The notes under the pieces: model-generated
What the model saw: the letters and a program-made list of their open reading frames with translations, nothing else
Database searches by the model: none
What the model was told of the DNA's origin: nothing
Shown here: piece by piece, positions 68 to 2,782 of the stretch
Position numbering within the stretch: position 1 is the stretch's first letter
Layout: each line of letters begins with the position of its first letter
Made by a program: the position numbers and the translations under genes
IMG/VR virus record: IMGVR_UViG_2671180349_000004
DNA from: a virus
Lineage: Duplodnaviria; Heunggongvirae; Uroviricota; Caudoviricetes
DNA: 17,885 nt
Strand: one strand, 5' to 3'

Positions 68-2740
68 TTGGGTGTGGATCACTATTGCACCGTTCGTGAC
101 AATAAAAGCCTGGACGCACAGGAAAAACAGGACAAAACCATCACACTGGCAGGAGACGCCAGAAAACAGGCACGCGGCGCGGTGGATGAAGCCATGGCCT
201 CGCTGCGCCTGCTGCCGTCCTATCTGCGCGATCCGCTTATTCGCCACCTCTCCTTCCTGCGCAAGAAGCAGGAAGCCGATCGTCAGAAAGGCAAAAAGAG
301 CTGGCAGGCGGAACGCTACGCGCGCGGAACCCTGCGCAAAATATTCGAACGTCTGGACCGCACCGATCACCGCTGGCTGACACCGGGTTATCGCTCCCTT
401 GCCGGACGCGAACGCCTGGACGATTTGCTTTACCTGCCGCAGCTCAACAAACACCAGATACAGACGCTGGCCACCATGACGGCGGCGATGTTCAGCAGCA
501 CCTTCGAAAAACTCTGCGATGGCTTTGGCGCTACTGATGGCGAACTGACCATGGATGTAACGCTGAAGGCGTATCAGATGCTGGCCCGCATGGCGTTACA
601 CCTGCACGCCATGCCTCCACATTATGACGCACTGACAACAGACAAAGACCGGAGGAACGAACCGGACACGGAGCTGCTGCCGGGCGCAATCCTTCGCCTG
701 ACCTGTGCGGAATGGTGGAAACGCAAACTGTGGCTGTTACGTTGCGAGTGGAGAGAAGAACAACTCCGCGCCGCCTGTCTGGTTTCCAGAAAAACATCAC
801 CCTATCTGAGCCAGGACGCGTTAAGCGAGTTTCACGCACAGCGCGAGAAAACACGCGATTTCCTGAAAAGTTTCATGCTGGAAAACGAAGACGGGTTCAC
901 GATTGATCTCGAGACGGTGTATTACGCGGGAGTAAGTAACCCGGTCCACCGTAAAGCAGAAATGATGGCCACCATGAAGGGACTGGAACTTCTGGCCGAA
1001 GCCCGTGGCGACAGAGCGGTGTTTCTGACTGTCACCTGCCCGTCAAAATACCACGCCACAACAGAGAACGGTCATCCGAATCCCAAATGGAACGGGGCCA
1101 CCATGCGCGACTCCAGCGATTACCTGGTTAACACGTTTTTTGCGGCGGTCCGCAAAAAACTGAACCGCGATGGCCTGCGCTGGTATGGCATCCGCACGGT
1201 GGAGCCTCACCATGACGGCACCGTGCACTGGCATATGATGGTCTTTGCACATCCGGACGAGATTGAAACCATCGTGTCCCATGTCTGCGATATTGCCATT
1301 CAGGAAGACCGCCACGAGCTGGGCGATGACATAACTCCGCGTTTTAAGGCTGAGTACGTAGACGGCTCAAAAGGCACGCCAACCAGCTACATCGCCACCT
1401 ACATCGGAAAGAACCTGGACAGCCGCGCCGTGGATGGCATCGACCCGAAAACGGGCAAGCCACGCGTTGACCACGAAACCGGAAAATCAATGGCAGAGAG
1501 CGTGGAACGCGCCATCGGCTGGGCGCGCCTTCACCGGGTCCGCCAGTTCCAGTTCTTTGGCATTCCCTCTCGTCAGGTATGGCGTGAACTCCGCCGCCTT
1601 GCCAGCCAGATGGCACGCAACCCGGAAGGCCCACAACGGCTGAAGGATGATGCAATGGATGCGGTACTCGCTGCCGCTGATGCCGGGTGTTTTGCCACCT
1701 ACATTGAGAAACAGGGCGGCGTACTTGTTCCACGCAAAGACTACCTGATTCGCACCGCCTACGACCTCGCAGATGAGCTGAACGATTACGGCGAACAGAG
1801 CGTACAGATTTACGGGATCTGGTCACCACTCATCGGGGAGTCTTCCCGTGTGTGCACACATCCGGATAACTGGAAGCTGGTAAGACGTAAACCGGAAGCG
1901 GAAGACAGCGCCCGCGAAAATGGTTTTGACCTTCAGGGCGGCCCTGCCGCCCCTTGGACTCGTGGCAATAACTGTCCCCGTGTACAGGAAACGGACAACA
2001 ACGGGACAGAACAGCCGGAAGAACGGCCAGCACCGTGGCCGCAGCTCCCTGACGGCGTTGAAGTGAACGAATGGATGCGCTCACTGAAACGGCACGAACG
2101 CCGGGCGCTGATGCGTTCGCTTCGTGACAAACAGGCAAAAAACAGCAGTGATGAAATGCAGAGCTGGACACAGAGCCGCAAACAGCAGCGGCCTTTGCCT
2201 GATAACCACGAATTACTCGCTAAAGAATGGCGGGAGTCTGCTGAATCTCTCGGCCTGCATATCGGTGAACAGCAGATGCAGCACCTGTTACGGGGCGGCA
2301 GTCTGTACGTTGACGGCAGCATCATTGCACCGCAGGGATTTGAAATTGTACGCAAACCGGATACCCGACCGGACAGCCGGATCACGCAGCTCTGGCAGCG
2401 CCTGAGCCGTAACCACGGCGTAAGCAGCACGGAGATCCGCTATAACCCGGTCGCCAGCTATCTGGAACAGCTGGGGGCATCAGACCCCGAAGCCGCCGCA
2501 CGCCTGGCATCCACACTTCAGCAAGACCAGAACACCATGAAAACACCCGTTACCGTGCTTTCTGACATGCTGCGCGCCATCCGCGACGCAGAGCACGCAC
2601 AGAGAATCAGTGAAACCACTGAACGCGCCCGCCGCAAAGCAGACCTGCTGCGGGGTGGCCTGACCATTGGAAACAAAAAACAGACAGAAACGGGATTCAC
2701 AAATCCCGTAAATGAGCAAAAAACGCGCCGCGATATATGA
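68..2740 (+). CDS. A: Replication initiation endonuclease gpA (rolling-circle initiator, HUH-type)
   Basis: 890-aa ORF. TTG at 68 is the first start after the in-frame stop at 56-58; alternative starts are GTG 74, GTG 182 and ATG 194, so the N-terminus is uncertain. Translation contains [15 protein letters not shown] (H-hydrophobic-H metal motif) and YIATYIGKN (paired catalytic tyrosines; compare P2 A YIAKYIAKN as recalled), plus [14 protein letters not shown] near the C-terminal third. Stop TGA at 2738-2740. Confidence 0.85.
2690..2709. promoter_or_regulatory. 20-bp palindrome ACGGGATT-caca-AATCCCGT (copy 1), inside the last codons of gene A
   Basis: Read directly: 8-bp perfect arms with a 4-nt spacer. 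A near-identical copy lies 73 bp downstream. Candidate operator or centromere-like site for the downstream ParR-like protein, or a gene A / ori-associated site. Confidence 0.4.
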
Positions 2741-2762
2741 AGCGCGCATAAAACAGGCAAAA

Positions 2763-2782
2763 ACGGGATTTCAGAATCCCGT
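2763..2782. promoter_or_regulatory. 20-bp palindrome ACGGGATT-tcag-AATCCCGT (copy 2), 35 bp upstream of the parM-like start
   Basis: Same 8-bp arms as copy 1. Overlaps the expected -35 region of the parM-like promoter (AT-rich TAATTAAT block at 2789-2797 as a possible -10), consistent with an autoregulatory operator. Confidence 0.4.

Follow-up and report, generated by a model that had tools for sequence, protein, structure and literature searches.

We analyzed a 17,885-nucleotide stretch of DNA (hereafter the window, meaning the whole stretch; IMG/VR record IMGVR_UViG_2671180349_000004) from a P88-like (Xuanwuvirus, Peduoviridae) phage of the P2 family, a prophage of E. coli, in which genes for an actin-like protein, ParM, and its adaptor, ParR, follow the replication endonuclease gene A. 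Two copies of a palindrome lie at the junction between gene A and parM. Comparison of this junction across relatives makes it probable that the palindromes are binding sites for ParR and that, with the A-rich DNA of positions 2674–2816, they form a non-canonical parC, probably also an operator, of a type II ParMRC partition cassette. ParM and ParR were identified by homology, and the sites are part of the cassette, being present with parMR and absent without it. Moreover, a GGG-N10-CCC pair at the cores of the palindromes is conserved in spacing and position across lineages and tracks the type of ParR N-terminus. Downstream of gene A come parM and parR, then a short variable stretch of cargo, and after it the portal, terminase and late genes. 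The features on which the argument rests are as follows.

1–2740, plus strand: gene A (replication endonuclease), Pfam Phage_GPA, 1.1e-128; 5' end cut by the window
2674–2816, unstranded: proposed parC-like centromere/operator region, the non-coding 5' part of the cassette, delimited by homology breakpoints in loci L042 and L053
2674–2715, plus strand: 42-nt direct repeat, copy 1 (A-rich leader and palindrome 1), the reference copy in the repeat search
2690–2709, unstranded: palindrome 1, ACGGGATT-CACA-AATCCCGT, exact match; core GGG-N10-CCC at 2692–2707; proposed ParR site 1
2747–2788, plus strand: 42-nt direct repeat, copy 2 (A-rich leader and palindrome 2), 81% identical to copy 1, with a start-to-start distance of 73
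2763–2782, unstranded: palindrome 2, ACGGGATT-TCAG-AATCCCGT, exact match; core at 2765–2780; proposed ParR site 2 and possible operator
2817–3776, plus strand: parM, actin-like segregation ATPase; Pfam StbA_N, 6.9e-82, and ParM C-terminal domain, 6.2e-69
3781–4092, plus strand: parR, ribbon-helix-helix centromere-binding adaptor; Pfam Plasmid_stab_B (PF10784), 9.8e-24

The palindrome pair

When the window was searched for ACGGGATT-N4-AATCCCGT (pattern ACGGGATTNNNNAATCCCGT) with up to three mismatches allowed, two matches were found, each with 0 mismatches, against an expected count of 0.04; two or more matches occurred in 0 of 200 shuffles. An earlier note on this DNA had described two copies 73 bp apart, one within the last codons of gene A and the other shortly before a parM-like ATG, and each of these points was borne out. 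The pair stands far above chance, with a centre-to-centre distance of 73 bp; the gene A stop codon (TGA, 2738–2740) lies beyond palindrome 1; and palindrome 2 ends 34 nt before the parM ATG (2817), its core starting 52 bp before that codon. Relative to the ATG, the two sites are thus at -125 and -52.

The palindromes are the cores of the 42-nt direct repeat, and an A-rich leader ending in AAAC precedes each of them. No further half-sites were found near the pair at one mismatch or fewer, leaving only two inverted repeats of 16–20 bp, that is, four half-sites. The sole other GGG-N10-CCC in the window, GGGGGCATCAGACCCC at 2473–2488, lies inside gene A and is absent from L269, a prophage described below; its distance of 219 bp (3 x 73) from the core of palindrome 1, on the upstream side, is probably due to chance. 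Phasing of A-tracts was weak, with small autocorrelation peaks near lags 9–10, 22–23 and 31–32, and intrinsic curvature was not relied on.

The palindromes belong to the parMR cassette

At least three other types of gene A 3' end were found to precede the parMR cassette, and in every case homology to the window began at about 2674. In L042, which has a P2-sized gene A and an extra open reading frame (ORF) of 159 aa, homology to the window covers only 2675–4092 (L042 6981–8398), and in L053, whose gene A C-terminus is 40% identical, only 2673–4088 (L053 793–2208). These abrupt breakpoints indicate that the mobile unit is 2674–4092, with both palindromes inside it. The parC-parM-parR segment is thus a discrete cassette, and its occurrence behind several unrelated gene A 3' ends implies that it is exchanged within the cargo hotspot between gene A and the portal gene of P2-like phages.

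In the window, the final ~22 codons of gene A extend into the cassette, and the annotated replication endonuclease of P88 stops at the base equivalent to this gene A end. The coding status of palindrome 1 nevertheless varies between phages. In L042 it is intergenic and lies some 500 bp downstream of the gene A stop. In L053, stop codons a short way upstream close the frame that is read in the window, and in the Hafnia phage (L014-16) the loop contains the gene A stop. It is therefore the DNA that is conserved, and not the peptide. A 31-codon ORF in L042 (6952–7047), preceded by a Shine-Dalgarno-like GAGGGGG, spans palindrome 1 and ends at the TGA equivalent to the gene A stop of the window, its last 21 residues matching the gene A C-terminus; it is probably fortuitous, because the frame is closed in L053.

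The converse arrangement was found in L269 (NZ_CM176585.1), a chromosomal prophage of E. coli with a P88-type gene A. Here homology to the window extends up to 2624, and parMR is replaced by three unrelated minus-strand genes for hypothetical proteins of 269, 112 and 459 aa (3566–6700), a cargo that may be of a defence type. Neither the palindrome nor any GGG-N10-CCC was present anywhere in the 7 kb of this locus. The earlier note had proposed that palindromes at the gene A 3' end of phages lacking parMR would speak against a centromere; L269 has none. In addition, all 93 viral contigs with the two-palindrome pattern (93/93) were P88-like or related P2-type gene A/parM contexts. Taken together, the comparisons assign the palindromes to the parMR cassette and not to gene A.

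Two loci were considered as cases of palindromes without parMR and were set aside as uninformative on function, both being deletion derivatives that keep the first 47–60 nt of parM. L088 is a remnant with only the first ~47 nt of parM left, and in L081 (4069–4090), a P88-like phage, parM codon ~20 is fused by an internal deletion to the final ~24 codons of parR, with both palindromes intact. The latter phage implies that a prophage can persist without ParMR.

Conservation within the P88 group

To define variation at the junction, we used 160 loci chosen by DNA or protein similarity and not by the palindrome pattern, which yielded 71 distinct P88-type upstream sequences. Two scans of viral contigs by ParM alignment returned almost only P88-type loci, together with three of the L115 class. 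In both copies, the core GGGA(T/C)T-N4-AATCC(C/T) was kept across the 71 distinct sequences, and the perfect 8-4-8 symmetry is particular to the window. The loops vary, reading CACA or CACG in palindrome 1 and TCAG or TAAA in palindrome 2. Each stem pair showed one Watson-Crick type and no compensatory changes, and the common departures (T2696C, A2763G and C2780T) would form wobble pairs, on one strand in one palindrome and on the other strand in the other. Single pair types, varying loops and opposite-strand wobbles point to selection on the sequence of the palindromes and not on their pairing.

Distant lineages and the ParR N-terminus

The nearest outgroup ParMs, 54–62% identical, occur in P2-like phages of Hafnia, Plesiomonas, Serratia and Enterobacter, where parMR likewise occupies the interval from gene A to the portal gene (L111, L113, L114, L115 and L197-L199); in these loci, the stretch upstream of parM lies at about 3870–4000 or 2370–2500. 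Two of them share the paired motif with the window. Both have a ParM that is 62% identical. In L111, from Hafnia, the sites are GGGATTGAGGAAACCC and GGGTTCATTAAATCCC at a spacing of 73 bp; in L113, from Plesiomonas, they are GGGACAACAAAAACCC and GGGACAACACTAACCC, spaced by 72 bp. Relative to the ATG, the sites lie at -128/-55 in L111 and -131/-59 in L113, compared with -125/-52 in the window, and L015 has the equivalent GGG-N10-CCC site at -51, so that over all four lineages the two offsets range from -124 to -131 and from -51 to -59. In L111 and L113 the upstream DNA is otherwise unrelated to that of the window, the sites have little or no hairpin potential, and in L111 an A-run lies on the opposite side of site 1. 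The background density of GGG-N10-CCC in these loci is 0.2–0.9 per kb, and no other pairs at 70–75 bp spacing were found in them.

The presence of the motif followed the type of ParR. GGG-N10-CCC pairs were present in 4 of 4 lineages whose ParR N-terminus reads TRR(I/V)SFYL, whereas none of ten loci with other N-termini (NRKISFY, NRKCSFY, RRKILFY, RRKITFY and PRKIAFN) had such a pair or site within 200 bp of parM. Plasmids of the pOXA-48 type and those of Pantoea and Cronobacter (L110, L264, L265 and L267) carry classical T-rich iteron arrays of 10–11 bp instead. In the Serratia/Enterobacter phages the putative centromere is different: an inverted repeat whose arms, (A/G)GGAACGAAATAGAAAAAT, are 19 bp long and which measures ~65 bp between its outer ends.

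ParM and ParR

ParM gave a full-length match to R1 ParM (PDB 1mwk, E 1.3e-92). For ParR, the family profile matched pB171 ParR/StbB (PDB 2JD3) at E 3.6e-13 over nearly the full length, and membership in the ParR family is based on this match and the Pfam match. A phmmer search of PDB with the single ParR sequence gave no match. The AlphaFold2 monomer of ParR had a mean predicted local distance difference test score (pLDDT) of 59.7 with a disordered N-terminal strand, and a Foldseek search of PDB with this model returned nothing meaningful; neither was counted either way.

Among P88-type phages ParM is 94–100% identical, and ParR ranges from 54 to 98% in intact ones, yet residues 1–14 of ParR are invariant. 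The C-terminal N..LFP motif is also invariant, even in distant lineages, and aligns with the C-terminus of pB171 ParR. A constant strand that would read DNA, a constant tail that would bind ParM and a free linker between them form the pattern expected of an adaptor between a fixed site and a fixed motor.

ParR is also mosaic. Among P88-type phages, near identity covers ParM and the first ~18 codons of parR, while the remainder of ParR falls to 55% identity, and to only 42% in L012, where the copy is apparently frameshifted (window 3781–4092 compared with L006 3982–4296 and L012 5001–5312); the recombination breakpoint lies ~55 nt into parR. A tblastn search of plasmids and phages with ParR found P88-like elements only, so that no close plasmid-borne relatives of ParR were available for comparison. 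A single ParM query against genome contigs found only three near-identical loci, and a homologue search with the Plesiomonas ParR found only itself.

Other repeats and expression of the cassette

Besides the two palindromes and their A-rich leaders, the region 2674–2816 holds the parM ribosome-binding site, and two further inverted repeats lie at or within its bounds.

2724–2747, unstranded: GC-rich inverted repeat CGCGC...GCGCG from the consensus fold, with the gene A stop TGA (2738–2740) in its loop
2787–2798, unstranded: AT-only palindrome GATTAATTAATC; the best -10 candidate for parM, a weak one, overlaps it

The middle GC hairpin was kept in all 25 sequence variants, with one CG-to-TA double change in 2 distinct sequences and 10 T-G intermediates; L085 has a shifted-register variant, and the hairpin is absent from L111 and L113. 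For the AT-only palindrome, a symmetric variant, GGTTAATTAACC, was found in 6 of the 71 distinct sequences together with one-sided intermediates, and TTAATCAA is common to the window, L111 and L113.

The earlier note had placed palindrome 2 over the likely -35 region of parM, which a promoter scan did not confirm, as no sigma-70 site in 2700–2816 reached its threshold. By eye, the best promoter candidate for parM is weak: TTCAGA (2770–2775)-N16-ATTAAT (2792–2797), with 8 of 12 matches. Because palindrome 2 overlaps this -35 candidate, the only one, autorepression by ParR bound at site 2 is plausible but unproven. A promoter between the palindromes, as in R1, was considered and rejected: the sole -10-like string there, TATATG, which falls within the loop of the middle hairpin, varies among relatives, reading AACATG, AATATG or AATGTG. 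Because gene A and parM are not separated by any plus-strand terminator, expression of the cassette along with the early replication operon is also possible, at a time when the genome is extrachromosomal.

Proposed mechanism

Drawing on the literature on ParR (PMC5016525, PMC2241845), we infer by analogy the binding of ParR, its stoichiometry, looping or spreading, repression and segregation activity. One ribbon-helix-helix dimer of ParR would occupy each GGGAT(T) half-site, giving a dimer of dimers on each palindrome of 16–20 bp, with the invariant N-terminal strand T5-R6-R7-I-S-F-Y presumably reading the G/C triplets. Because 73 bp corresponds to about seven helical turns, both sites face the same side of the helix. 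The two sites might be brought together, or might nucleate cooperative loading of ParR on the A-rich spacer, to build a partition complex. The invariant C-terminal tail (N96..L100-F-P) would then capture the growing ends of ParM filaments, and these would drive apart sister copies of the phage genome in its extrachromosomal form. A further effect of site 2, located -52 to -37 relative to the ATG, would be repression of the weak promoter of the cassette itself. As a further possibility, ParR bound over the last codons of gene A might modulate gene A expression or read-through, coupling replication to partition.

More tentatively, the region could act as a minimal centromere for an extrachromosomal phage genome, whether after infection, upon excision or during replication driven by the early operon; these phages would then be facultative phage-plasmids or would actively position their replicating genomes. 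We regard this as conceivable but doubtful. If it holds, the phages concerned would be those of the P88-like group and others of the P2 family in Escherichia, Hafnia, Plesiomonas, Serratia and Enterobacter, and about a quarter of complete E. coli genomes would hold an actin-based DNA-segregation machine dedicated to a prophage.

Weighing the assignment

The earlier note had favored an operator/centromere site of the parC kind for the ParR-like protein, and all comparative tests (L269, L042, L053 and the Hafnia phage L014-16) point the same way. Several observations weigh against this assignment. The tandem direct array of ~10–11-bp iterons seen in other systems (2 x 5 in R1; continuous in pSK41) was not found here. 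With only two sites, or four half-sites, the canonical ring of ~12 ParR dimers could not be templated by specific sites alone, and the half-site centres are ~12–13 bp apart, compared with the 10–11 bp typical of ribbon-helix-helix arrays. The covariation with ParR type is drawn from four lineages against ten loci, not all of them independent. A promoter scan of 2700–2816 gave no sigma-70 site above threshold, which makes the operator role weak, and parMR may be mostly read through from gene A. In complete E. coli genomes, 1464 of 1466 places with the gene A-parM junction are chromosomal and 2 are on plasmids. ParR binding at the palindromes, stabilization and expression are all predictions from sequence, and a literature search found no paper describing the cis site of this parMR system. 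Finally, in the P88 group a T-run comes after each hairpin on the minus strand, and in the window the minus strand of both palindromes resembles a terminator, with an 8-bp stem and a 4-nt loop followed by TTTTTGCC or TTCTGTCTGTTTTTT.

This last resemblance raises an alternative in which the palindromes are Rho-independent terminators on the minus strand that halt antisense transcripts, from leftward cargo genes or parMR, before gene A. The middle GC hairpin, judged by eye, is likewise followed on the minus strand by TTTTTTG, and several relatives have minus-strand cargo genes downstream of parR. However, terminators conserve pairing and not sequence, and here the stems are identical and the loops different, with 0 compensatory changes in the 71 distinct sequences. 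L111 and L113 keep GGG-N10-CCC, its spacing and its position but lose the hairpin potential and the T-run arrangement, and the elements stay linked to the 5' end of the parMR cassette irrespective of the downstream cargo. We therefore consider this explanation unlikely, although a secondary terminator role in the P88 group is possible. Structures in the plus-strand gene A-parM transcript, acting in processing, mRNA stability or translational control of parM, are very improbable. In their favor, the region is probably transcribed with the early operon, as no plus-strand terminator separates gene A from parM; a 147-nt region folds much better than its shuffles on both strands (z -6.5 and -5.3); and the middle hairpin shows one compensatory change. 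The folding scores were discounted, however, as a trivial outcome of two identical palindromes, and no Rfam family was found in 2500–2900. The palindrome stems show no covariation, T2696C (22 of the 71 distinct sequences) produces a C-A mismatch on the plus strand, and the L113 sites cannot form hairpins.

The origin of replication (ori) of P2 lies within gene A, and palindrome 1 is inside the gene A reading frame in this phage, so accessory sites for gene A or the ori might also be envisaged. This reading is largely refuted by L269, a P88-type gene A without parMR or palindromes, and by L042; palindromes also occur behind the unrelated gene A 3' ends of L042, L053 and L014-16, and the frame across palindrome 1 is not conserved, which leaves it barely credible. 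Both alternatives raised in the earlier note, gene A or ori sites and plain RNA hairpins, are thus disfavored, by L269, L042 and the lack of covariation. A site for some other protein, such as a host factor or another phage regulator, or a recombination landmark for cassette exchange, is quite unlikely as well. ParR binding at the palindromes is itself a matter of inference, and the left breakpoint of the cassette (2673–2675) is only ~15 bp from palindrome 1. On the other side, neither the right boundary of the cassette (4092) nor any other part of the window has a matching palindrome, and a host factor or unlinked phage regulator is hard to credit because the type of site tracks the type of ParR N-terminus across lineages and different host genera. 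Binding of ParR to the palindromes thus remains the reading that we prefer.

Prevalence and implications

The gene A-parM junction was found in 1321 of 5426 (24%) complete E. coli genomes, including O157:H7 and ST131 strains. A gene A of this type occurs in 1371 genomes, ~50 of them without the parM junction, meaning that roughly 96% of such prophages carry the cassette. A closed circle of 34.5 kb within one complete E. coli genome, pZ1323PEC0009-2 (L268 = NZ_CP148288.1), holds a whole P88-like genome with integrase, Cox and repressor genes, which hints at an episomal state. Pfeifer et al. singled out P88 as possibly being a phage-plasmid, one having 'episomal and integrative states' (PMC7969092).

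Among plasmid segregation machines, ParMRC is the textbook example of the actin-like kind, with centromeres described as arrays of tandem direct iterons. Here it occurs in an integrating prophage of the P2 family, with a putative centromere cut down to two palindromic sites whose spacing of 72–73 bp is conserved across genera. If ParR binds them, they would provide a minimal and easily mutable centromere in which to ask how few ParR contacts capture a ParM filament. They would also offer a handle on why integrating phages keep a partition system, whether for an episomal phase, for genome positioning during replication or for incompatibility against rivals, and would mark the cassette 2674–4092, which moves as a unit in the gene A-to-portal hotspot of P2-like phages. 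As a precise target for mutation, the palindrome pair could help to establish at what stage, and to what end, an integrating phage of the P2 type employs a plasmid segregation machine.

The neighboring cargo region

The variable cargo between parR and the portal gene occupies 4093–5233 of the window. It contains an ORF of 89 aa at 4478–4747, followed by a strong plus-strand terminator (4755–4775), and a minus-strand ORF of 134 aa at 4727–5131, neither of which had a Pfam match. The equivalent region of relatives holds other genes, including Rrf2, a KAP NTPase, insertion sequence (IS) fragments and a membrane protein.

Comparison with known systems

In partition systems of type II, ParR binds to parC, which is located immediately upstream of parM (PMC5016525, PMC2241845). 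We place the present locus among them because its position, ParM, ParR, the presence and absence of the sites and their covariation fit. The parC of R1 consists of two sets of five direct iterons of 11 bp placed on either side of a promoter core of 39 bp, and each iteron takes one ParR dimer (PMC2241845). The two loci are alike in the place of the sites upstream of parM within a parC-parM-parR order, in a close ParM homologue, in a ParR of the same Pfam family (PF10784), and in repeats divided into two separated sets (PMC2241845), which here lie in A/T-rich DNA. They differ in that the window has two inverted repeats of 16–20 bp, separated by 73 bp, with the only plausible promoter downstream of both, and the DNA sequences of the two loci are dissimilar; the caution in the earlier note that the layout departs from the 11-bp direct iterons of R1 was thus justified.

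ParR of pSK41 and pB171 is a ribbon-helix-helix dimer that sits on units of ~10 bp, with two such units in 20 bp, and turns its C-terminal tails towards ParM (PMC5016525), and the ParR family described here matches that of pB171 (2JD3, 3.6e-13). In contrast, pSK41 parC has continuous tandem direct repeats that carry a super-helical ParR array, which two isolated palindromes could not template via specific contacts alone. In the operators of the ribbon-helix-helix repressors Arc, Mnt and CopG, a palindrome of ~20 bp is bound by a dimer of dimers with beta-ribbons in successive major grooves, the site overlaps the promoter, and binding represses it. Unlike ParR, these proteins are pure repressors without a motor partner, and the likeness is a mechanistic analogy only.

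The srpC site of the SrpMRC system in SXT/R391-family elements of the integrative and conjugative type (ICEs) has been shown by experiment to stabilize the excised form (PMC4489591). It differs from the present sites in several respects: SrpR has no recognizable similarity to ParR, the units are of 13 bp with another sequence and layout, the element is an ICE and not a phage, and binding and function were tested for srpC, whereas the palindromes are known from sequence alone. The likeness is that a type II cassette resides on a normally integrated element, with a centromere upstream of the actin-like gene that comprises only four short repeats, direct and inverted (PMC4489591). By this analogy, srpC is the closest functional precedent for the palindrome pair of the P88-like phages.

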